The translations under genes and the position numbers were made by a program. The notes under the pieces are model-generated. The model worked only from the letters and a program-made list of their open reading frames with translations. It did no database searches and was not told the origin of the DNA. A DNA stretch of 63,998 bases, the filler included, from Dugesia japonica (taxonomy: Eukaryota), in assembly GCA_001938525.1 (NCBI GenBank). It is 6 parts of 6 records of this genome, joined end to end, with 100 filler letters (N's around TTAATTAATTAA, not from the genome) between each part and the next. Parts side by side here need not be neighbours in the genome. Positions count along the whole stretch, not along the records: positions 11,472 to 22,377 come from MQRL01573122.1; 5 more parts are not named here. One strand, 5' to 3'. How positions within the stretch are numbered: the first letter of the stretch is position 1; the number at the start of each line of letters is the position of its first letter. Of this stretch, positions 2,741 to 46,073 are shown piece by piece.

Positions 2741-4696
2741 GAGTAAAGATTCAAATAAAGCAAAAAGAAACTTTTCACAAAAATAAACTAATGTAAGAAG
2801 GAACTTTTGTTCTGACGTAATTGAAATTACTTCAAGAAAAGGAACCTTCGAAAATATTTGTTTTTTTATTATATATCCCAACGTTTAAATTGCTAAATTT
2901 TAAGTAACTTTTGAATTTCGTTAAATTTATTATACTTAAGGTTTTTTACTGTTAAGGAAGCTGCATATATAGTAAGTACTTTGTAATTCAATTTTAAACA
3001 CTTTAATCAAGTATATTCGAAAATAGCGTTTGTTAGGTCCACTTTGAGTAAAAGAAAACAAAAACTAACAATTGAGGACAAATGTAAGATCTTGACTGCA
3101 TTGAACGATGGTACAAAAACCAATATTATTTGCACACAATACGGTGTAAACAAAAGTACAATTTCAAAGATCAAGAATAATAAAGAAAGCATTCAAGAAT
3201 TCGCAAAAAACTCAATACAGTCTACAAACAGAATTAAGAGAATTTCTACAGTTAAAGTTCCGGATATTGAAAACGCCATTTATCGGTGGTTTTTAAATGA
3301 GAGACTCAAGCATAACATAATCAACGATGATATGCTTAGTATCAAAGCGTTAGAATTCCGTTGGGATTTGAACTCTGATATTTCGTTTTCAGCCAGCCAC
3401 GGTTGAATTCAAAAATTTAGAAAACGGCATGCGATTCGGATCCTCAAAATAAGCGGAGAAAAATTATCCACCAATGATTCTGCTTTACCTGCATTTATTG
3501 AACGTTTTAAGACTAATATTCGACAATTAGGACTACGACCTGAGGAAATATACAATGCAGATAAAACAGGATTAATTCTCAAAAGTTTAAGTTCAAAAAC
3601 TTTAGTGACAAATCAAGAAAGAAATGCCCAGGTAAAAAAATCAGCAAAGAATGGGTAACCATAATGGGGTGTGCCAATGCAACTGGGCATCATAAACTAC
3701 CGATAATGATTATTGGGCGTTCTAAAAGTCCACGCTGTTTCAAAATTGCGACTTTACCTAACATGCACTACCGTTCATCATAAAATGCGTTGCAAACAAG
3801 AGCACTTTTTAAAGAATGGTTCCATGACGAATTTGTACCAGAAGTACAAAAAAATTTGATGCAGAAAAACTTGCCTCTGAAGGTAGTTCTGCTGTTGGAT
3901 AATGCCAGCTCCCATTTATGTGGAGAAGAATTGAAATCGAGTGATGGAAACATAACGGTGTTATATTTTCCTCCAAACACAACAGCGTTATTGCAACCAC
4001 TCGATCAAAATACTATCCGATCACTAAAAACATTGTACCGCAAATAACTCTTACTCAACAACGAAAATTTAGAAGAAACATTAAAGAATGTTACACTAAA
4101 AGAAGTTGTTTATATGGTGGTGCAGGCATGGAATGAAGTTAGTATTCAAACTGTCAATTCTAGTTTTAAGCATTAATTCTTCTCAGTTGATGAACTCATT
4201 TTTAATTTGCCACCGAATCCCTCTTTAGAAGAAGATGAAGTTCCATTGATAGAACTCTACCACCATGTAGTTCCAGGAAATAATATGAATGACGAGCAGA
4301 TATTGGATTAGGCAAGAGGAAGTAATGTAATGTAATGAGGGCGAAATAACTGAAAATATTAACATCGATGAAGTGGACAATAATGATGACTTTACAAACC
4401 CTGATGTTGATGAAGCACTCAGGGGCGCAAATGTTACTCTTAAATGGGCCGAATCTAAACTATCTATTTCTGATATATTGATTCTTCGGAATATGAAAAG
4501 TTTGTTTTTGTTATACATCCTTTTTTACTTGCTTGGTGACAAATATATAATTATAATACTATTAGATCTACGTAGTAATTTTTTTTGATAAAATACATGA
4601 AATTGTACACCAAATTCACAAGAAGAAACTTTTTACAGAAAAAGAAACTTTTTCATATTTTGTTTCAAAGTAGGTTCTTTTTTTGAATTTTTACTG
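2741..4696 (+). mobile_element. Decayed pogo/Tigger (CENP-B/jerky-like) DNA transposon
   Basis: ORF 3044: KRKQKLTIEDKCKIL..GVNKSTISKI (CENP-B N-terminal HTH), IENAIYRWF, FSASHG*. DDE_1 motifs follow: IYNADKTG, VVLLLDNASSH, FPPNTTALLQPLDQ, with stops and frameshifts. The right end ...ACTG|TA is at 4696. The left end at 2741 is a loose AT-rich match only. Confidence 0.9.
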
Positions 4697-5419: not shown

Positions 5420-8400
5420 CGTTATGCAATATGACTAAGAGTAATATAATATTTTCATATTGACCTTTGTATAAGTATATTGACATATGTATGCGTTAAT
5501 AGGTGAATGAGTAATTGACTGTTTGAATGTGTGTATGGTTTTAGAAACTCAGACATTATTGCATAACTTATTCCTCAAAATCTATTTATATTTTACGATG
5601 TCATTTGGTTGTTAGAATATATATTTTATGCTTAATTCGTTTTCAAAGTTTAACATGGAAACCACGCCCATCCTGGAATCGTGAATTCCAACACCCAAGA
5701 TTTTCGATATGGGAGGAAATATTGAAGAAGCAAACATAGTTTTTGAAATTTCCATGACTTAGAATCAGTTAAAGAAAATAATTATAAAAGCTTTTATGAC
5801 AACAGACAAAGTCAAATTATATGAAGGAGTCGATTCAAAGATTAGAGATTTCGAAACAAGATGTAGAGGCATTTTCGGAGCCTACATATCTTGAAAAAGA
5901 TCTAATTAATGCCTTGAAATATCGTAGACTAAATGAATCCTCCATTTTATTTTTTTCAGAAGTTAAAAAGTTAGCAGATAATATTCTGCGTCACCAGTTA
6001 ACAAAGGAAAAACTCGTCAAATTCCTTTTACAAAATTCAATGGATGATAAAGAAGTTAGAAAGGAAATTAAAATGTGAAATATAGAAGATGGTTAAAAAA
6101 ATGAAAGAAGTTATAATTAAAATTGTAAGTTTGAAAAAAGAAATGGAACAAGAATATGGAATATCAGTGTTGAAGAAAAACATTACATATGTAACAGTAT
6201 AACGTGAAATTCCATATTCAAATAATAGATTTAATAAACCAAGATTCAATGGAAATTTAAATCAAATTAAAAATTATGAGCAGAAATATGATTCCAAGAT
6301 ATATCAAAGAAATACCAGGAAATTTATGAGAGGAAATTATGAACGCAATTTTCAGACTTTCAGAGTGATGAAATGTTGGGCATGCATGGAAAAAGGTCAC
6401 ATACACTCACAATGTCCTAACGTTAAATGTTCGCATTGTAAGAATTCAGGATATATCTGATTTCAATGCCATGAAATTGATCCTTTTTAGATTATTGAAT
6501 AATATAACGCAGAGACCAATACCAAATATAGAAGAAATGCTTGACATTTTGAATGGATCAAAATATTTTACAACGATAGATTTGGATAATGCATATTACC
6601 AGGTAGAATTAGAAGAAAGTTCAAAATACAAAACGGCATTTTCTACAAAGTTTGGTGAATTTCACTTCAACCGAATGCCATTTGGAATAAATGCAACACC
6701 ATCAACATTTCAAAAACAATTGACAAAAATATTAGGACCCTTAAATTGGAAGGAAGCAATTGTTTATCTTGATGATATACTGATATTTTCTAATACTGAG
6801 AAAGAGCATACAGAAAGATTAGAAAATGTTTTTAATGAAATCAAAAATTTGCGTTGGAAATTAAGTTCTGATAAATGTGTAAAGATTAAATTTCTGGGCC
6901 ATATCATTTCCAAAGATGGTTTATAAACAGAACCTGAAAGGATAAAAGTAATTAAAGAATTTGAACAACCGAAGTGTTGGAAAAAACTTCGTGGATTTAT
7001 AGGGCTTACAAACTATTACAGAAAATTTATTAAAGATTATTCAAAACACTCGAGGATATTAGAAAATTTATGTGGAAACAATAAATATAAATTAAGTTGG
7101 TCAGATCAATGTATGGAAAGTTTTGAAGCTTTAAAACGAGAATTAATGAATGCTCTTATACTTATTTATCCAGATTTATCCAAAGAATTCATACTAGATA
7201 CAGAGGCTAGCTTTAACATAACTGATGAAGTATTATCACAGTTAGATGAACAAGGTAATGAAAGGGTTATAGCTTATGGATTAAAAGCAATGAGTAAGCA
7301 TGAATCAGGTTATTGTATAGCCAGACAAAACCGTCTAGTAATATATTATTTTACGGAACATTAGAAACACTATTTTTACGGGAAAAGATTTAAACTTTGA
7401 ACTAATCACAAAGCCATAACTTTCATGATTAAAATAAATAAACCGATTATTCCGCAATTCCAGACATGGATCTATTATTTAAGTTGCTTGGAGATAATTA
7501 TGTAATACAGAAAAGAAGAATTTGTTTTAAATGCTGACGCAATGTCGAGGAATAATTTCGAAACATGTATTCAATGTTAATTGAATCATGAGAATGTGAA
7601 AAATGGAAAAATGAAAACAAAAGTCTTAGCAATTGAGCTTAAAACAAATGGTAACTAATGGCAAGAAAACTCTGAAGAAATTAATATAATAAAAGGTAAC
7701 TTAAAAAATGATGAAATGAAATCAAAATTTAAGTTTTCAAATGGTATCATAATGACAAATAATAATAAAATTTGGATTCCTTTAGAATGCAGAAAATTAT
7801 TTGTAAAAAATGAACACGAATATCGTATAGAATTTCGAAAAATGGCAGCTCATATAAGAGAAAATTATGATATGGAAGGTTTAGAATAAATTGTAAAAGC
7901 GTTTACTCAAAGTTGTAAAAATTGTCAATTAAGAAAAACACAGACATTTCAATCTATAGAAAATATTATTAGTATTCCAGCTGATGACATCTATGAAATC
8001 ATTCATATTGATTTTTGTGGTCCTTTAAAGAAAGTTTTATATGGAAAATAATACACTTTAGCTAAGATTGATAAATTCAGTACTCAATGCAGTTTCACAT
8101 CAAGATGAAAAATCCACTGTTAAAATATTAAAAAATAATTGGATTTTTTAATATGGTGCACCGAGAATAATACATACAGATTGTGGAAAATCATTTGAAC
8201 CAAATATATTCTAACAATTTGCTAAGGAATTTAATTGTGAAATCTAATACTCTAGTCCATATCATCATAGCAGTTAGGGAATAATTGAAAGACAATTTCG
8301 AACTATAAGAGATACAATTCATATTAGCTTACAAGATAAGAAAATGTAGGACTGGGCAAAAATTTTACCAGAAATAGAATTTATGTTGAACACCACAATT

Positions 8401-8579
8401 CAGAGAACGACGAATGTATTTCCAGCTGAAATAGTTTTTGGAAAAAATTTACGCAAAGAATGGATTATTAGGAATGATAAAAAAAATTCAAATGAAAAAA
8501 ATCTAAAGCGTAAAAGAATTACAAACAATTTAAATAACTATGAAAATTCCAAAAATTTAGAAAAGGATAATACAATTAA
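5420..8579 (+). mobile_element. Decayed Ty3/Gypsy LTR retrotransposon (5' LTR, gag, RT, RNase H, integrase; protease and 3' LTR missing)
   Basis: LTR 5420-5655 (CGTTA...TAACA) followed by a TGG PBS. Gag has two zinc knuckles (CWACMEKGHIHSQC, CSHCKNSGYI*FQC). RT: FTTIDLDNAYYQ, RMPFG, VYLDDILIFS. RNase H: FILDTEAS. Integrase: IHIDFCGP, IHTDCGKSF, IERQFRT. Confidence 0.93.
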
Positions 8580-8650
8580 AGTAGGAGGATATGTACGCAC
8601 TACATCACATGCTTTTAGTGCCCCCTCACACACCCTTAACCCCCTTTTTT
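8580..8650 (+). mobile_element. Putative Polinton left terminus (AGTAGG...) abutting the Gypsy integrase
   Basis: AGTAGGAGGATATGTACGCACTACATCAC matches 20/29 ungapped with the AGTAGG segment at 22276. A C-rich tract and subterminal tandem repeats follow. Confidence 0.5.
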
Positions 8651-8679
8651 GATAGTTCCGCACTGCTTCACATGGTTTT

Positions 8680-12794: not shown

Positions 12795-14042
12795 ATTATT
12801 CACGGTGTATTAAACATTGCTTAAGTTATTCCTTTTATTTTTAATGTTTTTTCTGATTTATTATCTTTAAATGAATAACATTTTACTTTTAAGAATATTG
12901 CTTTAGTTATAAAGTTTTTTCCTTCTAATTCATCTTTAAATTTACATAAATCTGTTGGATGAATATATTCATTAAATTTACTAACTTCTTGTTCAATCAT
13001 TGTACCAATTGGTACAAATATCTTTAAAAACATACAATCGGTATCTGTGTAATGTATTTTGCCATCATTTATTCGTAGATTAATACAATCATATTTAATC
13101 ATAAATTCAATCATAAATTTATACATTAATAACTTAGATAACTCTAAAATAGTAAAACCTATGAAATTAAATTTATCATGAACAACTTTATTTCTTAATA
13201 GATGTACAGCAACTACATCTTGACTAAATATCTTCTTTGATTTAAAATTTGGTTTAGCTATGTGTCTTTTGTAAGTTAAATGATCATAAACAATTTCAAT
13301 ATTCTGTCTATTCCCAATATTTCTAATGTCTTTCCATAAAATGCATTATTCATTAACTTATAAAAAGTATACCAAATTTATCTCTGTTTCTTTTAGCTAT
13401 TACTCTTTTCGCGATATTAAAATCAATATAAGACTTTAACTAATTAGATTTTAAATATATTAATTTTCTATGTATTTGAATTATCTTTATTCCATGATCC
13501 ATATACCAATCTAACATTCTTCCTTCAATTACATAACGAAATTTATTATTTTGATTTAATATTAATTTTACATTAGGTTTATATCTATTAGGTTTAAACA
13601 TATTTTGATATTGACTAAATTCTTGTTCTTTTGATGTACATTTCTCAGGAAGAAATGAATAATACTTTGTTGCATCTTTATTACTATTTAGATATTTTAA
13701 ATCTACATTATAAACATATCCATAATTATATTTAATAACATTTTATTTGTATCATATTCATTTAATAATGTTCTTTGATAAATTAAATCATTACTCCATT
13801 ACATTTCACCGGTTGGTAATTCTTGTACCATTGCTGATGGATATAAAGAATTTGCATCATAATATAATAAATAATTCTCTTTTAAATATAATAAATGTAA
13901 TTCAGGTGTTTCATTAATTTTATTATTCATAAATTTAATTGATACATTCGTATTTCTATTATTACATGTTTCTTTTCTATTGCATAATACAGAACTTACA
14001 CCACCTCTAACTCCTTTTTCAAAGAATAGTAGTTTATCATAT

Positions 14043-16606
14043 TGTTGGGGTAAAATACCCGAGCATTGGAAAAATAACTCCAAGGACCCCAAATCATAAA
14101 CCACAGAAAAGAATTAATCACCAAGTATTATTAATAAAGAAGAATAAACAATTAAAAAGAAGATATGGAAAATCAAGAACATGAAGGCCACCATAATAAA
14201 GTCAACAACAACTATAATTAAAAGAATTATAATTTATTATCAAAAAATGAGAAAATTATCGCTAAAATAGAATGGTTAATTAACGAGGAAAATTAATTAA
14301 TTTTAATTCTAAAAAAGAAATTTAATTGAGTGAAAATCTGTTTTATGGAATATCTTTGCACTGGAAGATCTCAGAGAATCCCAACAAGAAAATTTGGAAA
14401 GCTAGAATCACGGGGAAATTAAATTTCGAAACGAAAAAATCCTACCATTCTCAAGAGGGCCAGGAAAAGGTTTTGAAGAACAGGTCAATGGGAGGCCAGA
14501 AAATAAAGGAATAATAAAGCCCTAAAAATCGCAAGGTGTCTTAAAAATAGGCACCAATGAAAAGTCTGAAAAAATAGAAAATTTAGGTCTGGTACCAATC
14601 AGAAGTGGCAAACTAGAGAGTAAAAATAACACCCAATATAAAGAGAGTCGGGGTGCAAAGAAAATCATATAAAAGCCTCCCGAAAACTTATCGAAACTAA
14701 CCTTAAATTTTTACTACTTGTATTACGACAATTTACACAAAAATTTTCGTTTGGAAAGCAAAACAAACTCTTATTTTAAATCGCTAAATTGCGTATACTA
14801 AATTTCATATTTACGTTGAGAAGGATTCAATTTATTGTACCAGAGGATAAATTTTCAAAGGAAGAACCCGTAGAATTTTAAATCAACTGTATTCAAACCC
14901 GTTGCAGAAGTCTCAAAAATATCAAATTTTCAAAAGTAATTTTTGTTGATAATAATGATAATGTATTTAAATGTTCAATAAATTTTTAATAAAAAACAAA
15001 TTTTATATATTATCGTTTTTAACCTGCTTTCTAATAATTTCATAATTTCGAGTGGTAAAACAAATAATTAAGCTGATAGATGTATGATGTTATGCAAATA
15101 AATTCCAATCATTAAAATTCAAATAAGCAGTTGTAGGTTTTCACAAGATTGTCAGTTATAGTACCACAATTTCAGACAGCTATGAGACAAACAGAAATAT
15201 TTCCACCACATAGACCATGTTTAATAGAATAAAATTTCTATTGCCGAATAATTGATCGTGGTAACTTACCGCTAGTGGAGGCAACTGTAGAAAGAATAAG
15301 GGACTTCGGAGAGCATATCCCCCAGCGGATGCTGGTAGCACAGTTCACATGCGGGAATCCCCCGGCCCCTCCTAGAATAAGAGCGGTGATTGACCATTTA
15401 ATTTGGCAGGTTAGAGTAACCGAGGGCTCAAAGAATTCGGAAAATATTGAGTTAGTGTCAAACAGTGAAAATTGATTTAAGTGTGTCTTCGAACAATAAA
15501 CGTTCCTTTTTATGATCTTCTAATGAATTTTACCTTGTTCTATATTTGATTTTGGTTAAATGTCGCATTTCAATAGGAACTGAACCTGTAAATAAAACGC
15601 GCAGTTGTGAGTTCGAGTAAACCCAGAAAAACTAATTTATCAATTATTGAATTTATCATTAGTAAATTTTGTCATTACCTACGGCTTCGTTTGATTACAT
15701 CAATTGCTAATTCAATTATTAATTCATTTAGTACATTCCTCCCTTAACCGGTCGGTGGCTCCAACTAAAAAAGTCCGAAAATTGGAGTCTTTCACCGACA
15801 ACATCCGGTCTATCCATGACCGTGAAAATAAACTGGTAAAGACTTACTCGAAATGCGTTGATGATAGACAAAGCCATCCAAACCCGAAATTGAATGTTAA
15901 ATTGTTTTTCTTTGAATAAATATTGTATCTATTTCGATATCTTGATTATTTCATTTTGTGTTGGCTTATCATTCATTTACTTTTAGTGCCACGAATACGA
16001 CTGCCAACTAGCCTCCGTCGTTGTCATTGACTAATCCAAAAACTTCTATTAGAGCGGCACCTTAAAAACAGAACAAGCATGCCCTATTACAATATCTCAG
16101 TCAATGAAACAGAATAATTAAGAAACTGGACATAATCGTTTAAAAACAAGGTGAACTGGCGGAACGCATGAAGCAGATCCTTACCAATAAAATAGATTTT
16201 TTACAGAAATACATCGATGACTTGTCCACTCGCCTCGAACTCGAGACGTGCGTCCAGTAGAACAGTGGCGACGATGAGGCCGCCTTCGATTTTGAGAATG
16301 GTGAGCCCACCCAGTGGCTTGACCCTGGGGCAGTAGACTATGTGTAATTTAAGACTGTGGTTCTGTAATAAAATTTTCTTTTTATGGTATTACGGATATA
16401 TATTAAATAAGGTATTTTAAAATGGGAATATTGAACCCGAATAAAAATATGTGTAAGTGTGCACTCCGAATAAGCTCTGGGAGTCAACCGCTTTACATCG
16501 ACAACCTAAACAGTGACTTTAGGTATATTCTTGAAAGGGGTCCCCTGAAAACTGTCTTTTCCCCCAGCCGTATTTTACCACACTAAACTCAGATGGAACC
16601 CCAACA
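14043..16606. mobile_element. 2,564-bp solo LTR (Gypsy-type) with ATAT target-site duplication
   Basis: TGTTGGGGT...ACCCCAACA termini. ATAT lies at both 14039-14042 and 16607-16610. No RT or integrase inside. The 3' ~450 bp is homologous to 49340-49791. Confidence 0.88.
16153..16347 (+). pseudogene. LTR-internal small ORF of unknown function (copy 1)
   Basis: KIDFLQKYIDDLSTRLELETCVQ*NSGDDEAAFDFENGEPTQWLDPGAVDYV*. It is 26/52 aa identical, ungapped, to the copy at 49391-49549. Confidence 0.7.
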
Positions 16607-18368
16607 ATATGCATATTCCATATAATGTTTTAATTTTACTTTTGTATACTTTAAACCTGCTTACCATGTTAATCCAGGTGTTGAATAACAATAACAAGAA
16701 TAAATTTTGTATTCATTTAAACATACATTTCTAAAGTTTTCAAATAAATCAGCTAATAGTAAAATATCTATTTTTAAATGCTTCATTGTATAATCATACA
16801 TATTTCTATATTGTAATTCATTCCAACTTTGTTATGCTTTTACATAATCAGATGTATCTATATTTGTTTGTCTTAATCTAGAAAAGAAATTTTCATATGA
16901 AGATAATTGAGTTTCATTCATTATATTTATTACATCATTAAAACTATTATTGCTATTTAGCATAATCATAAGGATAAATTCCTTTCTTATTTTTTAAATT
17001 ATGTTTCCTTAATATTTTCCAACCTGCCTCTCTTAATGTTGAACCCATAGATTCTAAACTATATGCTGTAAATAATCCGAAAGTATCTAGAATTCTAATG
17101 GAATCTATTTATAATGAAATGTATTCTTTATCAGTTTTAGTAAATGGATTAATTTTCTTGTATTTTAAATATTTTGATTTAAATAATTCTTTAAATATTA
17201 AATGGATATCATATTTTGAACCATTCTAAAAATACATAGGAACAAACGTGCATTTCTTAGCATTTAAATTACATTCATTGTGAACTGCACCTCTATATTT
17301 TCCATTTAAATTATCATGATCTCTTTCCTTATGATTTTTATTTGTTTTGTCAGTTTATTCTTATATATAGTAAATTTCTTTGGATTTAATTGAAATTCCT
17401 TTTCACAATAAAAGTAATCTATCGAATTATCATAATTTATTTGATCTTCGGCAGTCATATTAATTTTATAATTATTTCCTAATGCTTTATCAAATATCAA
17501 TTTTAATTCTTCAAAATATTTAACAAATTTAGTTTCTCACTCCAACTACATGTCTTTCTATGAATTTCGTAGGCCTCTATGAAACTCTCTAATTTCTCCG
17601 GGATGCCCGAAAAATGCTCGTCATTAAACTACATTTTCCATTCCTATTCATGTTTACTTTTATTTCCACTCACGTTCATATTGTCGTCGCCTGGTTTTTT
17701 GTTCGGATCGCTTACTATCTAGTTATCTGACATGTTTGAGTCATTACTTGAATCTGAACTGTCACTGTCGTATGTATTTAATTGACTTGGTGATCGATAG
17801 ATTGTATTCACGCTGGTATTTACTAATTTCTCTGATGTCGTAGGGCTTGACCTTCCTGAATTTGATTCGCTCAACGATATTGTACTGTAATTGTATCTGG
17901 AATTATCGCCGAAGTTGATGGAGTTCCTGGTTCTGTTAAGAATGATTGATCGTATGGATACCGGTTTTCTGGGTTGAGCGATACTGATCTCTGTGACTTG
18001 GCGCGATGTGATTTTTTACTCGAATATGATTTCTGGTCCTTTGTCGTATTTTGTATATTGTATTTGTCAGTTGAATTCTCAATGGTGAATATTCTGATTG
18101 AGGTCTCGATCGTTTGATTTATTGAATAACCTGAAAGTAAAATATGATAGTCTCCCGGCTTCTAAACTCCAAATTACATCCCTTCTTTGTGCGTTTATCA
18201 TTAATTTGCGTGAGTTTGTTATCCATACACATAAATACTACTTGTTAATCATTTACATACCTAGTTACTTCACAATACATACTTTATTTACTTTCATTTG
18301 AAATAAAAGCTTCGATCAAAAAAGGTTTTTATTGTTTTTTGAGATTGATTCAATATTTTAACTTTGTC

Positions 18369-31933: not shown

Positions 31934-32019
31934 CTAATTCTAGATAATGACAATTTATTTTTTAAATCTAAAATTGTATAATCTTCATGTAAGCTAGGGT
32001 ATAACTTGTCAGTGTCCAT
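31934..32019 (-). CDS. N-terminus of the Polinton LYP-L membrane-type protein (truncated by contig end)
   Basis: MDTDKLYPSLHEDYTILDLKNKLSLSRI; similar to the ORF at 12441. Confidence 0.5.
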
Positions 32020-34889
32020 TTTCTTTAAGAAAAATACTCTTTAAATAAATTCCTTTAGGTAAAGTTATTTCTATAAAGTTAATATTTTCATTAAATGTTT
32101 TGTGAAAGAAATATTCCGTTTTATTAAATAAAGGCTCATTATATTCATGTGTAGTATTATTTATTTTAATGGAATATTTAATTTTTTTAATATCAAAATT
32201 ACCATTTATTGAACATTCTAAACTATTTATACGCGTCTTTATAGAAACAACAAATGGTTCTATAAGAAAAAATTGTTTTAATTCGGATGAGCCCATTATA
32301 ACCCCATTTCTTTTAAAATCTATTCTTTCCACTTTTTCATTAATAGTAAAATATGGAAGATCTTTTTCATCAGCTAAAAAAAATAAAAATAATTGAGTTT
32401 TATCAATAAAAAAAATAATAAGTAATTATTAATTATTTCATTTATACTTTTAAGTGTTAACTCATCACCATTTTCAAAAAATTCTTTATTAAATAATCTT
32501 TTATTAAATAATCAATTCTTTTAATTTGAATATTATGAAGTTCTGGTTTTATTTTTTCATATTCTTTTAATAATGCTTCAGGAATTTTAACCGCAAGTAA
32601 TTTAACATTTAAATCCATTAAATAAATTCCTTTTGGTAAAATTATTTGTATAAAGTTTATATTATTATCTTTAATAATTTCATTACTTTCTGGATAAATT
32701 TTCATAATATTATCATTGGGTTTAACAAATAAAAATGATACTGCAATTTTATTAAATTTAATAATATAATTAAATTTTGGAACTTCACAAAAACCATCTA
32801 TANNNNNNNNNNNNNNNNNNNNNNNNNNNNNNNNNNNNNNNNNNNNNNNNNNNNNNNNNNNNNNNNNNNNNNNNNNNNNNNNNNNNNNNNNNNNNNNNNN
32901 NNNNNCCTTTTCTCATAAAATCAAAATCATATACATATTTATCTATAACAGTAAAATATGGAAGTAAATCATTTTTTTAGTAGGAATTATTGAAAGTAAT
33001 ATTTGTCGGGAGGGTGAATTAAAATAAGGTAAGTAATTATCAATAAAATGTTTTATATATTTAGTGTCATATGTTTTAGAAAAAATATTAAATTTATCAA
33101 TATAAATTTTATGTAGGGTTGGTTTTATTATTTCATATTCTTTTAATAAATCTTCATAAATTTTAAAATTATATGTTTTAATAATTAAATGATTTAAATA
33201 AATATTTTCTGGTAAAATTACTTCAACATAATTTATTTTTACATCTTTATTAATATCAGTACTTTCTCGATAAATTACTATTTTTTTAGTTTCGGGCGTA
33301 AAATAATATTCTGTTGCTATTGCTATATTATTAATTTTAATAATGTAAATAAATCGTTTTTCACACATACCTTCTATAAATATACAAAGTTTTTCATTAA
33401 TGTTAGCATGTAATTTAACAGAAAAATATTCTTCAAGATAAAAACTATTGTTTATCATTTTACCTTTTCTTTTAAAATCTAAATGATGTACATATTTATC
33501 ATTTATATGAAATTGTGGAAGAATTTGATAACAGTTAATTGTTAATAATGAATTGTTATTTGGTATAAAAACATATGGTAAGTAATTATCAATTGTCTCT
33601 CTTAAACTTTTAATATTATTATTTTTAAATAAAACATTAATTCTATCAACATGAATTTTGTGAAGATTTGGTTTTATTCTTTTAAATTCTTTATTTAATC
33701 TATCAGCAATTTCTAATTTAAACAATCAAACACTTAAATCTTGTAAATAAATTCCTTATGGTAAAATTATTGAAATAAAATTTATATTAACATCTTCATT
33801 AATTTCAGTACTTTCTCTAAAAATATCAATAGAATTATTTTCAGATTTAACATATAAAAATCTATAATATAATTGATTAATTTTAATGGTATAAAAAGAT
33901 TTTTCAATATCACAATAACCCATTATATTTATACTAATTTTTTCATTTATCTTTGTATGTAAAATAATGGTTAAAGATTCTTCAAGGTAAAAATATTGAA
34001 TATTTGACACAAGTTTCATTATACCTTTTCTTTTAAAATCTAAATTATGAACATATTTACTCATAACAGTAAATTGAGGAAGTGTATCATATTTTTCATA
34101 ACATATAATTGAAAATATTATTTTGTTGGTTTGTATAAAAACATAAGGTTAGTAATTATTAATTATTTCTTTTAAACTTTTAAGTGTTAAATCTGAAAGT
34201 GTTTCTTTATAAGTTTCAAATAAAACATTAATTTTATCATCAAAAATTTTGTGTTGTCTTAATTTTATTGGTTTAATTTCTTTAAGTATTTTTAAAATTT
34301 TAGATCTAAAATCTTCTATATATAATTTAATATCATTAATATTATTTAAATATTGGTCAAATGTTTTTTTTTTATCTAAATTAAGAGGTAATTACATAAT
34401 TTTATTATTTAATGTGAGAATTTCTTTTTTAATTTTCTTACTTAAATCGCTTCGCTGGTCTTCTGACAAATCAGGATCACTTAATTTTTTTAAATTAGAA
34501 ATTAAATCAATTCTTTTAAATGGGAAAAGTATTTGATTTATTCTTTTAATATCAGAATCAATATTATCAAATGTATCCNNNNNNNNNNNNNNNNNNNNNN
34601 NNNNNNNNNNNNNNNNNNNNNNATTAAGTTCTTTAGAGAAATCTATATTATTTAATTTGTTTAATTCATCAGCTTTAAATTGTAAATATGTTTTACTAAT
34701 TGTGGATTTATCTATCTTTAAAACTTTTGTAAAAATTAATTCATGTGATTGTAATTTATTTTCTAACTCTTTAATATATTTTAAATTAACTGCATCATTT
34801 AAATCTTTAGGATCTTCTGTTATTTTTAAAGTTGTAATTGTGCCAACTGTTTCATTTACAAATTTACTTTCATTTTGTGCATCTGACAT
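32009..34889 (-). pseudogene. Fibre/spike-like protein: N-terminal DP-D--DAVNLKY anchor, coiled-coil, then four tandem ~185-200 aa repeats
   Basis: Track ORFs 34392, 33756, 32943, 32457 and 32009 join across stops and frameshifts. The unit INNYLP..LP(Q/Y)FT...DFKRKG..F..EE...IKIN...INFI.I.LPKGIYL recurs at ~34155, 33585, 33035 and 32425. Confidence 0.7.
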
Positions 34890-36223: not shown

Positions 36224-37096
36224 CTAAATCTTGTTAGATATTAAACTCATCATTTTTAATTTTTTACATACACTTTGAATTTCTCCATGTAAATTGTTAT
36301 GTCCAGATTTAGTTGCCGATATTAATAATGTTAATTTTTCAAATAATGCTAGAGGATTAAGTGCATCACCTTCTTTTTTATCTATTGTTTTATCTTGTTC
36401 TTTTTTTAAAGCTTTACTAACATCTTCAGGATCAATTCTACTTGTTTGTCTACTTTTATTTAAATCTACTATTGATTTTAAATATTGACAATAAGGATTT
36501 CTCCCAGGTGGTTTTATTATTTCTGTTAAATATTTAACTATAAACCTTTTTATGGGTGTATTTAGTTTAGAAGAAATACTAAAATTACCCATCATGACAT
36601 CAAAACATTCTTCTTCATATTCATCTTCATAAATTGTATTATTTATTGCTAAATGTTTTACACCTTTAGTTGTAAAGAAAAATATTGTTACATTTGTTTT
36701 GTTATAATATAATCTTTTATATTTTTTATTACTTGGTGTTATAGGTATTTCAGTAATTAGAGGAATTAATGTTGGTGATAGTATATCAATATTAACTGTT
36801 AAATTTTTGGGTATAAATGGAAATACATCTTTAGCCATTAACATATTAATAATTACATCTTTAGCGAATAAATCTATTTTTGGTTCATCTAATATTTTAG
36901 GTTGAACTATTGTTGGATCTATTATTTGTTTACTTTTTTCAATTGCTGCAATTGTTGGTTTTTGTAAAGTAGATAAAGTACTTTGTAATTCTCTAGATTC
37001 AATTACATTACCACAGAAAAAATCATTATATTTTTGTTGAGCATTAATTAATGCTTTTAATTCTTTAATTCTTTCATTAACTTGTTCAGTATTCAT
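36224..37096 (-). CDS. Conserved Polinton accessory/core protein
   Basis: Intact 290-aa ORF. Its C-terminus NPLALFEKLTLLISATKSGHNNLHGEIQSVCKKL fits the P--L--RL-LL--S--AGN----EI--I---L motif common in Polintons. Confidence 0.7.
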   Translation of the reverse strand: MNTEQVNERIKELKALINAQQKYNDFFCGNVIESRELQSTLSTLQKPTIAAIEKSKQIIDPTIVQPKILDEPKIDLFAKDVIINMLMAKDVFPFIPKNLTVNIDILSPTLIPLITEIPITPSNKKYKRLYYNKTNVTIFFFTTKGVKHLAINNTIYEDEYEEECFDVMMGNFSISSKLNTPIKRFIVKYLTEIIKPPGRNPYCQYLKSIVDLNKSRQTSRIDPEDVSKALKKEQDKTIDKKEGDALNPLALFEKLTLLISATKSGHNNLHGEIQSVCKKLKMMSLISNKI

Positions 37097-37102
37097 GCTA
37101 TT

Positions 37103-37635
37103 TTATATAGTATTATTTGGGTTTGGGCTATATGGATTAAGATATAAACCATTACCATTTTTCCATGGATTTAAATATAAACCATTTCCATTTTTAATTA
37201 TTTCAATTCCTTTTTTAAAATATTTTGTTACATCTTTAATGTTAGGATTAATATTTTTAAAATATTTATGTATTGCATTTCCTTGATATGGATTAAGATA
37301 TAAACCATTTCCATTATATGGATTAAGATATAAACCATCACCTGTTTGTGGTTCACTATTTTCAAGTAAATCAATCTCTTTTTGTGTTTCAATTGCTTCT
37401 TTTGAACTAGCTACAGTAGATGCAAGACCAGATGCAATACCTGCTGTTCCGGCTAATGCACCAATTATTGCTGGTATTGTAGCTAAAAATGCAAATCCAC
37501 CTTCTTTACTTTTTTTTTAAGTTCATCTTTAACTTTTTTACTAATATAATAATTTTTACCATTAATTTTTACAGATTTACATTTTTTAGAATTTACTATT
37601 TTTTCTAATTCTTCTTTTGTTATATTGTCACTCAT
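37103..37635 (-). pseudogene. Putative virion core / membrane-active precursor with GG|F site and four GLYLNP repeats
   Basis: One frameshift in an A-run. KEGGFAFLATIPAIIGALAGTAGIASGLAS is followed by G(D/N)GLYLNP(Y/W) x4. Confidence 0.7.
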
Positions 37636-37640
37636 TTTAA

Positions 37641-40600
37641 TTATAAACAATTTAGATTTTTATTAATCATGTCTAATCTTAAATGGTACATGTTACATTT
37701 TACACAATAATATTTATTTCCATGTGGCCATGTTGTTGTTCCATTATCTTCTATAATTCCCTTATCATCATATGCCATTAGAGCTATTTTCTTTTGTTCA
37801 ACTAATTCAATTTCATGACACTCAGATTTTAATGAATAGTTTGTACCATAAATTATTTTCTTAGGATCATTTAATACATTATCAAAATCTTTCATTAATA
37901 GTTTATTATTTTTCTTTACTCCTTTATTTCTAGAATCAAAACCCGTTTCATCATAACTATAAGCATAAGATTTTGCTTTTATAAAATTAGCTTGATTTAT
38001 TTCAGAATTAGGTATTTCATCCTTCATCTGAAATAGTTCATTTCCAAGTAAAGTTTTTAATTTTTCTAAATTATCTCTATGTTTTATCTCAAAAAATATA
38101 CTATCAGTATCTGAATAATGTATTTTATAATTATCATTACCAATTAATGGATCCATTTGATTGTATATAAAATCATACATTACTTGTTTGGCGTGTTCAA
38201 GTATTGTGAATCCAATATATGGAAATTTTTTATATTTTAATTTACCTTTTTCCATATTCATTGCTGCAATTTCTGCTTCATTTGAATCATTAATAGTAAA
38301 GATTTTACTTGACTTAAAAGTTATTTTACTTGCAAACTTTAGATAATCTTTCTCATTATCTACAATTTCTATGTTGCATCTATTTCTTATATTTTCTAAT
38401 GTTTTNNNNNNNNNNNNNNNNNNNNNNNNNNNNNNNNNNNNNNNNNNNNNNNNNNNNNNNNNNNNNNNNNNNNNNNNNNNNNNNNNNNNNNNNNNNNNNN
38501 NNNNNNNNNNNNNNNNNNNNNNNNNNNNNNNNNNNNNNNNNNNNNNNNNNNNNNNNNNNNNNNNNNNNNNNNNNNNNNNNNNNNNNNNNNNNNNNNNNNN
38601 NNNNNNNNNNNNNNNNNNNNNNNNNNNNNNNNNNNNNNNNNNNNNNNNNNTATATTGGGATCAGGTATAGTAATTACCCAATTGACCTTGTTGGTAATTA
38701 TATCATCCAACAGTCAAACATATCGGATTTTTCAGGCATACATGCAAACATACAATTACATAACATAAAATATTTAGTTTATCATTATTATAATTAATCA
38801 CATCTCACACTACCTAAACACACATAATTTTTCTTGTCTAATTGATTAAGTGTTAATTTAATATTATCTTTTAATATTTTCTTCTTAAAACTTTTTTGGT
38901 AATTACTTAACATCTCAGGTCTAATATTTATTCTGTCTGGTGCTAATGGGAAATATTTAGTTTTGTCATGTATTTCTGGTGGATAATCTTAATCCACTTC
39001 ATAAATAAAATTAATGTTATCATTTGACATTTCATATATTAAATCTTTACACTCAATAAGTTCACCAGTTGGTAATGGTTTAGTCATGCATGATGCATAT
39101 AATCAATTTTCATCTAAATATTTTATAAATGTATCATCAAAATAATCATCTGAAAATATTTGTTTTCCATGTAATAATAAATTTAATAATTTATTCATTT
39201 CTCCTTTATTTATTCTTTTAAATTTGGGACTTTTAGTATTATTATGTGAAAATACTTGACGTTCGCCACATACACCAGAATATCCACCTCTAATACCTTT
39301 CTTCAATTAATAAGAAAATGTCATATGTTTCAGGTTTAGCATATTTCAGTTTAATGTCAGCATTTAGCATTCCTGTTTCCCATGCATAACCTGGTGCTGA
39401 ATAAGAATAACTTGGATCTAATTTAAGATTGTTTTCTAGAAAATCAGTTAATATTAATACATCAAGTTTCATGTAATGTAACATGTATTCCCACATATTA
39501 TTATAGTTACTTTGTGGTCCACATATATCATTTTAAAATGATTCATATTCTTCATCAGATATTTCTTTTTGTGATAATGTGTTAAAGAAATCATCTTTTG
39601 TTGATAATCTGTTAGATTTTAATAAATTTTCAACTTCTTGAATATTTCCCCCTTTTACATATTCATAGGGAAATAGAGCCTTTTTAGGTTTTAAATTAAA
39701 TAATGTTAATATTGGATATTTATTTGATTGAGTTAATAATTTACCCATTACTTCAACTGATGTAAATGGAAGTAATCTAGCCGAATCTAAAAATTTAATA
39801 TTTTCATATTCAAATGAAATGTAATTATCAGATGAGTGTGGAATTATTTTTTTTATTTTACTTGGAAAATTAATCATTAGTTCTCTAAAAAATAAATGGT
39901 TATCATAACCTGATGCGTTATGAAAATAAAATGGAATAAATAAATTTTTAATTGATAGATCATTTACATTACATTCATTAAACGACCATCCTCTAAATTC
40001 ACCTGTGAAATGATTGTGATCTTTAACTGGATTTTCATATATTAATTTATCACAATATCTACATTTTGTGTCAAATGTATATTCTGGATGATTTATACCT
40101 TTATATGTTTTAAATAATTTGTTATCTTCTATTTCATTTAATTTATTATTAATATCTTCTAAAAATTGAAAGAATTCATCATAAATGTTTTCACCAGTAA
40201 ATTCATAATATTTACTTTTTAATAATTGTGGATAATCTGATTTTAAATAAACACTTAAAGATAAAGCTTTTTGTTTTCTAGTAAGAGAATTTGTATATGT
40301 TTCAAAATCACCAATTAGAATAAATGGTATTTTATTTATTTGATAAAATTTATTAAATGAATAATAATTTTTATATTCAAAAATAATGTTGTTTGGTTTG
40401 TGCCTAATACATGCATCTTGATGTTTATTTAAAACCGCTTCGCTTGAGTAACAATTCATACATCTGGTGCATAGATAATTTTTATTTCCATTTTTACTAA
40501 AGAATACACCTATATCTCTACATAAAATGTAATGATCTTTATATACTAATAAGTTACATTTATTTTCTGATATATCTGCTTTAATTGTAAAATGAGAAAT

Positions 40601-41632
40601 GTGAAGTGGTTCAAGTTTCTTATAATCATTTACACCATATACATTAATTTGATAATTATTTAATTTTTCAAATTTACTTATATCATCAATGTTCATTGGA
40701 AATTCAAAATCTTTATAATTTAAATCTGATAAATAAGGATAATAATTACTTGCACATGTAGGATTAGAATTAAAATATTTATGTGCTAATATTGAATATA
40801 AGAAACATTTGTTATCTTTATTTTCTATATTTATTACACCAGGTTTTTTAAATGGTAATTTACAATAAGTCGCACCTGCTAATGATTGATATTTAGAAAG
40901 ATCTAATGTAAAATCTATAATGTGCGACATTGCCCATCCACTTCCTTCTCTATCTTTATCTTCTAAATATTTTTCTAATTCATCAAATATTTCATTGGTA
41001 CTATTTTCAATTTCAATTTCCATTATAATTCTTTTATTTATTGAATAAGATGTAAAATCTCTTTCGATATAATCATTATTTATTATTTTTCCATATCTAC
41101 ATTTAACACCCATACTTATAACTATCTGTTTAGCATAATTAAAATATTTAGTAATAATTTCTTTAACTTGATTATAAAATATGTTAAGATCTCTAATTGT
41201 TTCATCAAATATTTCATATACATTTAATTTCATTTCTACTTTAACATCTTTTAAATATTTAATTTTATAATCTTTATATTTACTTAAAATATCTCTTATT
41301 CCTTGTTTAAAATTAATTTCTTCTTTATCTTTTGATTGATTAAGTAACATTTTTTTATGTCTATCAGAATTGTAATGTGTTCTTGCATGATTTTGTCTTA
41401 AAAATCGTTTGATGCAAATTTCACAGAATAATGCAACAATTTCTGGATTACCACATCTTGTTGCATTTAAATGTTCTTGTAAACTATTTTGTGAATTAAA
41501 TTTTTTTCTACATGTTTCACATTGAAATTCATCATTTAATCTATAACATATTCTTGATCTTTGATGACCTTTTAACCCAGCTAAATTCTTAAACTCTTTA
41601 TTACAATTATTACATTTAAATAAAGTACTCAT
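37641..41632 (-). pseudogene. Protein-primed family-B DNA polymerase with three N-terminal C2H2/C2HC zinc fingers
   Basis: EGSGW, NKDNKCFLYSILAH, GDFET (ExoI), DHNHFTGEFRG, FHNASGYD (ExoII), FLDS, KALFPYEY, KGIRGG, YLDEN*LY, YSDTDS, KGV. Broken by stops, a frameshift and an insertion near 38800. Confidence 0.95.
38651..38805 (-). mobile_element. LTR-like insertion inside pPolB
   Basis: The polymerase frame (KLTLNQLDKKNYVCLGS) gives way abruptly to non-coding TGTGATTAAT...TGTATG sequence running into a gap. Confidence 0.45.
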
Positions 41633-41743
41633 TTTCTAAAGGGATAATTTAATCCTCTTATTTTATTTTTATATTATTCCTCTTAAAATATTACATTTAT
41701 CATGTTTTGTATTTTCTATAGAATTAATTTGAAACATATTATT

Positions 41744-41890
41744 AAGTCACTTGGTGTATTTAAAATATTATAAAGTTACTTTGTGTATTTTATAAGTCAC
41801 TTTGTGTATTTATTAAGGCACTTTGTGTATTTAAAAAGTCACTTCGTGTATTTAACATTTATTAAGTCACTTTGTGTATTTAACATTTTT
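41744..41890. repeat. Six ~21-29 bp direct repeats AAGTCACTTTGTGTATTT upstream of pPolB
   Basis: Copies start at about 41744, 41773, 41794, 41815, 41836 and 41864. Confidence 0.9.
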
Positions 41891-41909
41891 TTATTTAACA
41901 TTTACCATT

Positions 41910-42350
41910 TTAACATTTAACAATATCGACTTGAGATTGATAATCTATTGTTTTTATTCCCACAAAGATTACTTTTCCAAAAGAAAACACATTAACAGAT
42001 ACTCGATTGAATTTTGTAAGTCGTAACCCAGGAAATAATTCAGATTTAAACATGCATTTAATTCTTTTGCTAAATCATTACAAGTTAATTGAATATCCAA
42101 AATTGATAACAATTGTAATGGACTGTAGTTGAATATCTTTGATATCATATTGTAAATGTTTTCTTTCCAAGGGTTTCTTACATCCCATGATTCTACATCT
42201 TTCGGATTTGAAGAATACTAACGTATATATTCCAGTTTTGTTGACAAGTTGTGATGGCTTGCTAATGGAAATATTCATTTTTTTCGTAACCTGTTGTGAA
42301 ACTTTGCCTCTGTTATTAATATTTGCAATTATAATTATATCAATAAACTT
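41910..42350 (-). pseudogene. TATA-binding-protein (TBP)-like gene, compact and intronless
   Basis: One frame with two adjacent stops: IIANINNRG...TLVFFKSERCRIMGCK...IQLQSITIVINFGYSINL**FSKRIKCMFKSELFPGLRLTKFNRVSVNVFSFGKVIFVGIK. This matches both TBP repeats (LIF-SGK-V-TGAK; YEPELFPGL). Confidence 0.8.
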
Positions 42351-42536
42351 TTAAAAGGAAAATTAATAAAATTAAATAAACAATAATTTAATTGATAAAT
42401 TAAAACAAACACTACGATGCGAGGTTTGATATTATATATAGAATAAACAATAAAACTGACACACTGCAAAACATATTTATAACTCAGTTACTCAATTACT
42501 CAAAACATATTTATAACTCAGTTACTCAGTTAATAG

Positions 42537-42567
<31 letters not shown>

Positions 42568-42568
<1 letters not shown>

Positions 42569-42696
42569 GTAGATGTAAAAATACGGTTTCTCGACAAGGT
42601 TGTGACCTTTCTTCACATACATATGTCTTGGGAAAAAATAGTTTATAGTGAATATAAATAAACTACTTATCGGGAATCCGTATTTTTACATCTACT
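42568..42696. mobile_element. 129-bp element with 27-bp terminal inverted repeats starting AGTAGATG
   Basis: AGTAGATGTAAAAATACGGTTTCTCGA versus the reverse complement AGTAGATGTAAAAATACGGATTCCCGA (25/27). No TSD visible. Confidence 0.8.
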
Positions 42697-43340
42697 TGGG
42701 CTGTACGTTCGATCTTTTGGATTTTTAGATTAGATTTTGATTTTTTTAAAATAGAAATGTGAATGCTAACTCAAACAAAAACACAAATAGAAATTTTTAG
42801 ATTTTTTTGATATTTTAAAAAAATTTAGAAAATATTCTATTTATAATAATAAGTAGCTAAAAGTTGAATTTTTTAATTTTTAAAATAAAGTGGCGTATAG
42901 AATGTTTTATTTTTCTATTTATATTTGTAAATATGTTTTNAATTAAATTAATAAAAAGATAAAATATTTATTAATTAAATTTTAAAAATTTATAAATGAA
43001 AAAATGTTTATCTATATAGTCATATAAAAAAACTCTTAAAAAATGAATTTAAAAATGGATATATACTATGGATGTATACTTTCTCAAAACTCGCTCCTGA
43101 AGCTTGGTGTTGGCAAGACGAAAAATTGAGCACCTTATTAAAGGAGTTTATGATTCTGATTTATGTGTTTACTGTCACACAAATGACTTGCACGTAAATT
43201 AGATGATTAACAATGAATGAGGTGGTAAAGAACCGGTTCTAAAAATAATAAATAAATCATTGGAGTTTTGTTAGTTTTAATTTTTAATTGTGCCCGTGGG
43301 CACAACCTTTTTAATTTTTGTTGTTTTATTTCTAAAGAAA

Positions 43341-44658
43341 ATGGAAACAACTAAAATTAATCTTGATAATAATACTAATTTTCAACATTTATTTTTGAAA
43401 AATGATGTTTTAAGAATTTTACCTTCATCTGGTTCAATAATTTAATGTCTTCTGGAGATATAGTTTTTCAATCTTTACAATCTTCAAATCCATTAGATAT
43501 TTGTAATTCAATGTTGTATTTTAAAGTTGAATAAGAATTTGGTGGAGCTGACGCTCATAAAGATAAAATAACTTAAGAAAATAATTGGTTTCCAAGTTTA
43601 TTTAAAACAATGAGATTAACTTTAGGATCTTCAGATGTAGAAATAATTAATGATTCAGGAATTTCATCAACAATATTAAATTTTATAACAACTAGTTCAA
43701 CTTATAAAAATATTTATGGTGAATTATAAGGTTGGTTGCCAGACACAAATCAAGGAGATTTAGATGTTAAAAGTTGGAATGCAAATCTACGTTTTTATAA
43801 AAGAAATAAACTTTATCCCAAAAAGAAATTTGAAGGTTATTTTCCTTTGAAAAATCTTTTTGGGTTTTTACAATGTTACAATAGATAATTATATAACACA
43901 ATGATTGAATTTACTTGTAATCGACAAATGAATGATAATTTAATATTTTATGGTGATACAGGTGCAACTGCTACTTTAAAATTAATGACACTAGAACTAC
44001 ATATTCCAGAATGCATATTAGTTCCAAAATTGGAAGTTAATCTTTTAGAAAGAATTAACACAAATAAATCTATCCAAGTTTCATTTTTAAATAGAATTAC
44101 ATCAAAAAAAACTTTAGATTCAGGAAATTATTATTCGGTAAAACTAAGTAATTTAACTTATAAACCAAGATATATATTTTTTGTAATAAAAAATTCAGAA
44201 ATTTCTTATCAAAAGAATAATAATTTATTTATCCAACAAAGTAGTAAAACTGTTGAAAATGAAAAGAAAGAAAAAGTTACAACAAAACATTTTCTTAAAA
44301 GTATTCAAGTACAATTAAACAAAACAAATTATCCTATAAATGTAAATTTAATATTAAAAATAATGAAATGATTTTTCCATATTTAAATTATGTAAATTGT
44401 TGTAAAGACATTTTAACAGAACCACAATTATCTCTTCAAGAATTTGGTGTTTTATACCCAATCTTTTGTTTTGATGGTAGTTCCCAAGGCGATAAATTAA
44501 ATATAAATACCGTAGATATAACTTTACATATAACTAAAGATACTGATTTTAAAGGATCCTTATGTTGGTGTATATTAGAAGAAAAACATATTGAAATGAA
44601 ATTATCAAATAGTAAAATTGTAATGATTGAAAATAAACGAGGAGAAAGTTTAGGTTAA
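43341..44658 (+). pseudogene. Major capsid protein (double jelly-roll, hexon/PY)
   Basis: NNWFPSLF..MRLTLGSSDVE, GWLPDT, FPLKNLFGF, KPRYIFF, IQVQLN..NYP, LYPIFCFD. Several frameshifts and stops. Confidence 0.88.
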
Positions 44659-44736
44659 TATTTTAACCACTGCAGCAGTCCTAAATTCTCTATTTTTAAA
44701 AACTTTTAAAAATAAAGCATTTAAATTTTAAATCAA

Positions 44737-46073
44737 ATGGATAATAAATATATTTGTGAAAATTGTAACAAAATATTACTTAGAAAAAATAAAGCTAGAC
44801 ATTTAAAAATATGTAAAACTGAAGAAGGTGATCACAAAGCTCAAACCTAAGATGGAGATCTTCAATCGTCTAATTAACTTCAGCAATTTTAAAACCATTT
44901 ACTTGGGAAAAGTATCCGGGAGAAAGATATTTGTTTAAACATAATTATACTGGACCTGGAACAAAATTAGATTTAAGATTAGATTCCTAAGGTAAACCAA
45001 ACCTTGGAGAAGAACCAATTAATAGAGTTGATGCAGCTGCTTTTAAACATTATTTATCTTATAAATCAGAAGATTTAAGAGATAGACATTTGGACGATGT
45101 AAATTTAATTCATGATTTAAATAATATCAAAAATCCAATCACTTCTAAAAAAATACAACGAGCTCTTGTAGAATTAGCAATAAAAGGTAAAAGTATTTTA
45201 GGTGCTGGCATAAGTCTGAGTGAAACGAATACTTTTCCCAAAAATAAAGAATTAAATTTAAAAAATAAAGAATTATTATCAAATGAACGTCATAAAGATT
45301 ATAGAAAACCAAAACATTTTCTAAAAGTAATAATAAAAGAAAAAGATAATACTTGAGGCTGTGATATTATTGATATGGTTAAAAAATCAACTGATGGATT
45401 TAGATATATTTTAGTTTGTATTGATTTATATTCTAGATATGGTTTTTGTGTACCAATAAAAAATAAAAATCAAGAATCTTTACGAGAAGCTTATGAAAAT
45501 ATATTTTAAGAAAATAATAGAATTCTTGATTTTATTTGGTTTGACAAAGAGTCAGCAATAAAATCAAAATACTTTGATAAATTTCTTTAAGAAAATGAAA
45601 TTAATTTGTATCATACTAAAAATGAAGATAAATCAATTTTTGCTGAAATATTTATTAGGACTTTAAAAACTAAAATGTGGAAATACTTAACATTAGTTGG
45701 TAATCAGAAATGGAATAAGAACTTGTTGGATAAAACTGTAAATGATTATAATAATACAATTCACTCTAGTATAAAAACAACTCCAAAAGAAGCTAGTGAA
45801 AATCCAGTTAAAATAAAAGAAATAATAAATCAACATAATCATGAAAATGATAACTTTAGTTTTAAACAAAAATTTAAAATTAGAGGTCGAGTTAGAATCT
45901 TTAAATATAAATACAAATTCGAAAAAGGATTTACAGCTAAATGGACAAATGAAATATTTGTAGTAGCTCAAGTTTATAATACAAAACCAATAACTTATGG
46001 AATTACAGATTAAGAAAACTAAAAGATTTTGGGTAGATTTTATGATAATGAACTTCAGAAAAATGTTTTATAA
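44737..46073 (+). pseudogene. Zinc finger + parvovirus-type phospholipase A2 fused to retroviral-like (rve) integrase
   Basis: CENC..RHLKIC. Then a single frame from ~44895: HNYTGPGTKL..PINRVDAAAFKHY.SY (PLA2), T*GCDIIDM, ILVCIDLYSRY, IWFDKES, AEIFIRTLKTKMW, YNNTIHSSIK, FEKGFTAKWTNEIF, GRFYDNELQ. Confidence 0.9.

Follow-up and report, generated by a model that had tools for sequence, protein, structure and literature searches.

A probable Gypsy-like solo long terminal repeat of Dugesia japonica carrying the decayed remains of a coding block once under purifying selection

What kind of mobile element interrupts a DNA polymerase gene of the planarian Dugesia japonica, and did its ancestors encode a protein of their own? 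The question is raised by a unit of 2,564 bp, element 1, located at positions 14043-16606 (plus strand) of a 63,998-nt stretch of this genome (the window), within which it was compared with two related 3' ends, elements 2 and 3. At odds of roughly 55%, we read element 1 as a Gypsy-like solo long terminal repeat (LTR) that carries a decayed, LTR-resident accessory gene. Two parts of this reading are considerably firmer than the whole, namely that element 1 is a genuine insertion and that purifying selection once acted on a protein-coding block near its 3' end.

The unit starts with TG and ends with CA, as in Gypsy-like solo LTRs, and its GC content of 34% compares with 25% for the window. Its termini form a perfect 9-bp terminal inverted repeat (TIR; plus-strand positions 14043-14051 and 16598-16606) and are flanked by a perfect target-site duplication (TSD) of 4 bp, within the range of 4-6 bp, with ATAT at 14039-14042 and again at 16607-16610, derived from the palindromic site CATATG. 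The interrupted gene is a decayed Polinton-type DNA polymerase B (polB) on the minus strand, the left flank of which (13802-14041) was recognised by a weak match to Pfam DNA_pol_B_2 (E 4e-5, under the curated cut-off) and by similarity to another polB in the window, and the right flank (16607-17351) by the latter similarity. The two flanks align to adjoining pieces of that second polB (right, 39433-39323; left, 39303-39208), as expected of a clean insertion, and element 1 is thus a genuine insertion into a Polinton DNA-polymerase gene. When the terminal 150 or 300 bp of either side were aligned locally, no longer inverted repeat was found between the two ends (P 0.10-0.81), and an extended TIR was therefore dropped as a candidate, nothing being significant past 9 bp. 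No long direct repeat was found inside element 1, and its 5' end recurs nowhere within it.

The evidence for a gene comes from a block of 52 codons and a stop at 16189-16347 (plus strand), 259 bp from the element end, which aligns without gaps to 49391-49549 (plus strand) of element 2. The two copies are identical at 26/52 residues and have the terminal stop in common, and 13 of the 26 identical residues are encoded by different codons. Mismatches fall at codon positions 1, 2 and 3 in the ratio 13/12/26 (P=0.028), leaving third positions 50% identical. The ratio of non-synonymous to synonymous substitution rates (dN/dS) calculated by the Nei-Gojobori method is 0.155 (bootstrap 0-0.47), and the synonymous excess was reached in 0.8% of 10,000 spectrum-preserving permutations (P=0.008). 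In a maximum-likelihood codon model the sense frame, the best of the six, gave a dN/dS of 0.27 with a likelihood-ratio test (LRT) statistic of 10.7 and P=0.001, which survives correction for six frames, and four of the five remaining frames gave values of 1.2-2.2. The changes are often conservative, with 18 of 25 altered residues scoring at least 0 in BLOSUM62, and the alignment of the two elements turns gappy immediately past the shared stop. In a composition score the block reached z = 2.9, but non-coding controls went up to about 2. The gapless 26/52 match with its common stop, the synonymous differences, the conservative substitutions and the 2,564-bp unit bounded by ATAT had all been described in the original prediction and hold as described. 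The 13 synonymous differences at 50% amino-acid identity, together with the dN/dS of 0.27, indicate that the block was protein-coding in the past, supporting the proposal that purifying selection once acted on it: between the two copies dN/dS lies at 0.155-0.27, not near 1.

The block had, however, been taken for an open reading frame (ORF) in element 1, which it is not, as an in-frame stop at 16258-16260, not noticed earlier, interrupts it. The same frame is closed upstream at 16141, 16105, 16063 and 16009, and the in-frame ATG at 16168 would yield just 30 residues. The element 2 copy is open throughout, but the stretch from its upstream stop (49295) to the block has no in-frame ATG, and the frame looks broken just ahead of the block. 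With a stop in one copy and no start in the other, neither copy is shown to be functional. Since both are broken and their third codon positions are 50% identical, the signal records two diverged active lineages and not a function of element 1 itself; selection worked via replicating ancestral elements, not on the copy in element 1. An accessory protein persisting in solo LTRs, as formerly envisaged, is therefore borne out physically, as a sequence that remains in place, and not as an intact gene.

A further ORF piece that had been pointed out at about 15215-15475 does exist, as a GC-rich island (15217-15475, plus strand) in which 15233-15472 stays open for 80 codons and an ATG at 15217 is out of frame, and is candidate coding sequence only. 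The frame is about 50% GC, a longer frame of 93 codons is open on the opposite strand, and frames of at least 80 codons appeared in 15% of 500 shuffles of element 1, so that this ORF is not beyond chance. Its composition score is z = 1.3, no relative was found in the window, Pfam, PHROGs or a word search at 44-140 aa, and a likeness by eye to the ORF of element 3 (described below) failed at E 1.1. Elsewhere in element 1, an A-rich frame at 14331-14801 with three stops in 157 codons is possibly a decayed ORF, not significant in a stop-depletion scan, of which 8/234 windows reached P<=0.05, within chance. TATAAAA at 14668 is a candidate promoter, and a 74-codon open frame at 15695-15916 gave a Pfam SHLD2_C match of E 0.007, under the cut-off and probably due to chance.

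Beyond the coding block, the last 184 bp of element 1 (16423-16606, plus strand) form a conserved, non-coding tail that resembles an R/U5 region. It matches element 2 at 131 of 182 aligned bases, an identity of 72% compared with 50% at the third codon positions of the block, and its mismatches show no codon periodicity (16/23/12, P=0.16). A candidate polyadenylation signal, AATAAA, lies at 16440-16445 (plus strand; counterpart at 49628), about 165 bp before the end in both elements. It is followed by two hairpins (16449-16498 and 16504-16524) common to element 2, in which 21/21 pairs hold in both copies, five of the 21 through compensatory changes, a result equalled in 17 of 500 shuffles. The consensus fold of the whole tail is better than that of column shuffles, with z about -3 and P about 0.01 (two sequences), and the corresponding controls on the coding block were not significant (P 0.19-0.98). 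Conservation of retroviral LTRs likewise lies mostly in or beside R and U5, and AATAAA is followed by stem-loops there (PMC2664473); a one-sided, structured and conserved 3' module agrees with such an architecture.

Element 2 (48523-49791, plus strand) is the 3' part of a diverged relative, whose 5' boundary was not seen, and resembles element 1 only over the last ~420 bp. Element 3 (46491-48522, plus strand), the 5' part of which is cut by the contig start, abuts element 2 or is nested in it, and its tail aligns to that of element 1 with a score of 71.5 against a null of 31.1 +/- 4.7 (maximum 45 in 200 shuffles). The top scores among 4,864 frame-piece pairs all came from this shared 3' region. 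Element 3 contains an ORF of 385 aa (47127-48284, plus strand) that is unrelated in sequence to the block and ends in an acidic tail; its composition score is z = 4.4. It appears to be an ISG20/SDN1-like, DEDDh exonuclease-like protein: phmmer retrieved SDN1 and ISG20 DEDDh exonucleases, two family members, weakly (E 0.003), and its look-alikes in the ESM Atlas were all RNase_T (top score 0.85, a lead only). Pfam gave no match, none of 1,576 word-search candidates reached E 0.01, and the structural model was unusable (pLDDT, the predicted local distance difference test, 33). By eye, two expected acidic catalytic positions differ and motif III is ambiguous. The distances from ORF stop to element end are 259, 242 and 238 bp in elements 1, 2 and 3, respectively. 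The presence of ORFs at a like distance from three related ends suggests, on sequence comparison, a swappable accessory-gene slot; since the 5' part of element 3 is cut off, the position of its ORF within an LTR would follow by analogy with element 1.

The first part of element 2 (48523-48830) is a low-complexity, ATT/ATC-rich stretch with a 9-bp tandem repeat, and the minus strand of 48399-48800 gives an Asn-rich reading over 133 codons. Directly past the end of element 2, at 49788-49890, are two 49-bp AT-rich copies, 92% identical and spaced by 54 bp. A Q/N/H-rich open frame occupies 46492-46941 of element 3.

LTR identity is probably the correct assignment for element 1, and the likeliest one. 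It is backed by an inverted repeat too short for Ginger-type DNA transposons, by the 4-bp ATAT site and by the conserved tail with AATAAA and hairpins, yet it is indirect because the window contains neither an internal region nor a second LTR. The solo LTR of the original prediction, well matched in its ends and TSD, stands as an unproven inference. A number of results weigh against it. None of the three related ends adjoins a second LTR, a primer-binding site (PBS), a polypurine tract (PPT), gag or pol, no full-length element occurs in the window, where only the three known ends were found, and the first contig, where a Gypsy pol fragment lies, shows no similarity to elements 1-3. The sole gag/pol motif in element 1 is an incidental YIDD inside the block, and, with no PBS after the related ends, the parent element is out of view. 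AATAAA is present 16 times in element 1. The hairpins score equally well on the minus strand and do not appear in the tail of element 3; single-sequence tail folds are no better than shuffles (z 0.07 and 0.36), and the stronger value of about -5.5 belongs to a 91-column window picked after the fold had been seen. The coding evidence has its own counterweights, because the statistics rest on two copies only, picked post hoc for their match. Amino-acid identity alone is within the permutation null (26 vs 22.5 +/- 2.4, P=0.11), and with periodicity kept the BLOSUM score adds nothing significant (P=0.15). Upstream of the block, the alignment score of 36 is not significant against a null of 29.7 +/- 5.6.

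Some of these points would also fit readings other than an LTR with a sense-strand gene. The two copies could, for instance, owe their pattern to antisense coding, or to chance periodicity of a conserved cis-element, within what would still be a solo LTR. In both copies the antisense shared-wobble frame is free of stops over the length of the block, with a dN/dS of 0.34 (LRT 7.6, P=0.006), and antisense ORFs have been reported in HML LTRs (PMC2664473). We nevertheless prefer the sense frame, which fits better by LRT, has the shared stop just where the gapless block ends and comprises more conservative changes (18/25, against 9/24 in the antisense frame, scoring at least 0 in BLOSUM62); no ATG start for the antisense frame was found in element 1, and a non-sense-strand origin of the block seems to us improbable. 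The capture of a host exon, or a Helentron-like element, would account for splice-site-like motifs close to the block and for a subterminal inverted motif. The splice motifs of the two block copies are, however, not shared in phase, and no host homologue was found among 1.84 billion representative proteins. Helentrons are not known to make a target-site duplication, whereas element 1 has one of 4 bp, and we consider this origin very improbable indeed.

A weightier competitor, although in our view still an unlikely one, is a non-autonomous, internally deleted DNA transposon of the Ginger or Gypsy-integrase type with unusually short TIRs, in which the block would be the C-terminus of a transposase or of a cargo protein. 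Ginger1 and Ginger2-Tdd elements share TGTNR termini and 4-bp TSDs with element 1, and Ginger2 favours AT-rich targets (PMC2836005). A unit with a TSD and without direct repeats fits such an element, and the different ORFs ahead of a shared end (elements 1 and 2 vs element 3) resemble cargo exchange. The 9-bp TIR, however, falls far short of the 40-270 bp of Ginger1 and the 50-180 bp of Ginger2, and CATATG, with its ATAT duplication, is neither the CCGG or CCGT/ACGG of Ginger1 nor the RTATAY of Ginger2, though it is AT-rich and of 4 bp, and one site does not define a preference (PMC2836005). A second inverted motif of 13 bp close to both ends of element 1 is marginal (P about 0.03), being equalled or exceeded by 19/450 internal windows and absent from element 2. 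No integrase, HHCC or GPY/F motif was found in any frame of element 1, nor any Pfam match or transposase remnant, although a non-autonomous copy would lack a transposase anyway. The conserved end is, moreover, one-sided and hairpin-structured. The Ginger-type alternative, already named in the original prediction, is disfavoured on TIR length and, for Ginger1, on target. It is less probable again that element 1 is a rearranged or internally deleted LTR retrotransposon, with the block as the end of an internal ORF3 in the env position and the short tail as the true LTR. Conservation is indeed confined to the last ~420 bp, there are purine-rich stretches after the stops, and the ORF of element 3 resembles a class found in bdelloid LTR elements, where ORF3s of the DEDDy exonuclease and coiled-coil types lie downstream of pol (PMC5408684). 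Against this, element 1 has a perfect TSD, inverted ends and a single copy of the tail; with one tail copy and a 5' end that is not repeated inside, two independent deletions would be needed.

If element 1 is a solo LTR, it would derive from a Gypsy-like clan with very long LTRs, whose active ancestors probably kept a small accessory gene in the LTR, its stop 80-95 nt before the polyadenylation signal. The gene would occupy the slot of sag and nef in the U3 region of retroviruses, with a subgenomic or spliced RNA that ended at the 3' LTR as its probable messenger; both the U3 position and this route of expression are suppositions. Reverse transcription copies such a gene to both LTRs, which would leave it as a passenger in solo LTRs, where it decays, as with the stop at 16258.

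Genes resident in LTRs are established in vertebrate retroviruses, and the arrangement in element 1 would, if confirmed, be a variant of a known layout. The sag gene of mouse mammary tumour virus (MMTV) lies entirely in U3, and further betaretroviral LTR ORFs have been reported (PMC3621094). As with MMTV sag and with nef of human and simian immunodeficiency viruses, an ORF in a long LTR would precede a conserved AATAAA/R/U5 module (PMC2664473, PMC3621094). Unlike sag and nef, to which no sequence similarity was found and which lie in the 5' part of the LTR, the block is near the 3' end and both of its copies are broken; the element has ends of the invertebrate Gypsy-like type with a 4-bp TSD, and its 2.56 kb exceeds the about 1.2 kb of MMTV-like LTRs. 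The LTRs of the Drosophila Gypsy-group elements 412, mdg1, blood, Stalker2, 297 and Transpac are a few hundred bases long and non-coding. Element 1 resembles this group in its 4-bp TSD, ATAT core (ATAT being the duplication in several of them) and palindromic site (PMC3276498).

An AT-rich composition with abundant Gypsy and Maverick elements is in keeping with planarian genomes (PMC11410931; bioRxiv 10.64898/2025.12.11.693146), and the planarian Burro/GYPSM1 elements share long LTRs with element 1, their internal region reaching up to 25 kb and their total length over 30 kb (PMC6431247). Burro has many captured accessory domains, but, as described in the text, these lie in the polyprotein or an upstream ORF and not in the LTR, and no DEDDh domain is listed there (PMC6431247). 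The bdelloid Vesta and Juno elements, with DEDDy exonuclease, GDSL and coiled-coil ORF3s, offer a comparable swappable 3' slot for extra ORFs that includes a DEDD nuclease, although there the ORF is downstream of pol and the nuclease is RNase D-like, of the DEDDy type and with intact catalytic residues (PMC5408684). The domain of element 3 differs in being ISG20/SDN1-like with altered motifs, and is probably inside the LTR, judging from homology with element 1. Inactive DEDD derivatives are also noted in the biology of PIWI-interacting RNAs (PMC5408684). The excerpts of PMC8532177 and PMC13465017 contain no mention of LTR ORFs, and phrase searches found no open-access paper title on an LTR-encoded ORF under selection in an invertebrate Gypsy-like LTR or on DEDDh nucleases in retrotransposons. 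The Burro literature with its supplements, or Repbase, may already cover these LTRs.

What the lost protein might have been was addressed by database searches and structural modelling. As stated in the original prediction, the peptide resembles no recognised domain, and no match was found in any protein library searched. Pfam assigned neither the element 2 peptide nor the second half of that of element 1 to a family, and for the first half a match to HSBP1 (E 0.06) fell under the cut-off. A word search of 5.8 billion proteins (45-146 aa), phmmer against the 1.84 billion representatives at E 0.001, PDB sequences (best E 0.53) and PHROGs (best E 0.018) all yielded no relative of the block, and the ESM Atlas gave no usable match. 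None of 138 pattern matches in GTDB genomes was confirmed, and exact look-up of block peptides returned 0/6. As these libraries are mainly prokaryotic or metagenomic and poor in unannotated animal repeat ORFs, absence from them is weak evidence of novelty. Rfam and tRNA searches gave 0 matches each. Structure prediction returned a weak model (pLDDT 59), a further point against the main reading, with a confident 27-residue helix, a second, short one and a tail of low confidence. Foldseek found no match to it in viral and PDB libraries, and the best structural match by VIA (Z 5.2, root-mean-square deviation 3.9, 55 aligned), was rejected as a generic helical pair and not specific. The product is predicted by this model to have been an amphipathic helix with an acidic, Trp-containing tail, which would suit a small binding adaptor. 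Interference with host silencing or RNA turnover as its job is a guess, and a doubtful one, made by analogy because the sister family puts a DEDDh nuclease-like protein in the same slot.

It can be proposed tentatively, as a possibility that we do not favour over its negation, that in an invertebrate Gypsy-like clan the multi-kb LTR serves as a swappable accessory-gene slot before a polyadenylation and hairpin module, occupied in two lineages by a small helical protein of a new family and in another by an ISG20-like pseudo-nuclease, and that solo LTRs, some with intact and expressed copies, seed host-interacting genes. If this were true, annotation that treats LTRs as non-coding would overlook mobile accessory genes as a class, and solo LTRs would supply scattered gene copies available for host co-option or for counter-silencing. 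Read as a deleted DNA transposon or as a rearranged element, element 1 would instead be an ordinary decayed repeat with a cargo peptide of no known family.

Other parts of the window hold further mobile sequences. Five sites, one of them ending at 46490, consist of 44 N, a 12-bp word with stops in all frames and another 44 N, in the manner of contig linkers, so that ~10-kb blocks lying side by side here may not be true neighbours. A decayed Gypsy-type pol at 6372-8652 has Ty3 reverse transcriptase as its best PDB match (E 1e-23) and no link to elements 1-3. An ORF at 963-1337 matches bZIP_Maf (Pfam E 2.4e-14) among mobile elements and could be either a host gene or element cargo, and the N-terminus of a CENP-B/Tc5-type transposase lies at 2987-3406. 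On the minus strand of 32009-34148 there are several tandem, diverged coding repeats, 67-73% identical, two ORFs of which were scanned with no Pfam match. A large Polinton-like region extends over 36224-46013 and comprises a polB with N-terminal C2H2 fingers (39533-41635), a double-jelly-roll capsid-like ORF (43889-44371, Pfam E 1.5e-6) and a phospholipase A2-like ORF (44991-45356, E 0.002).

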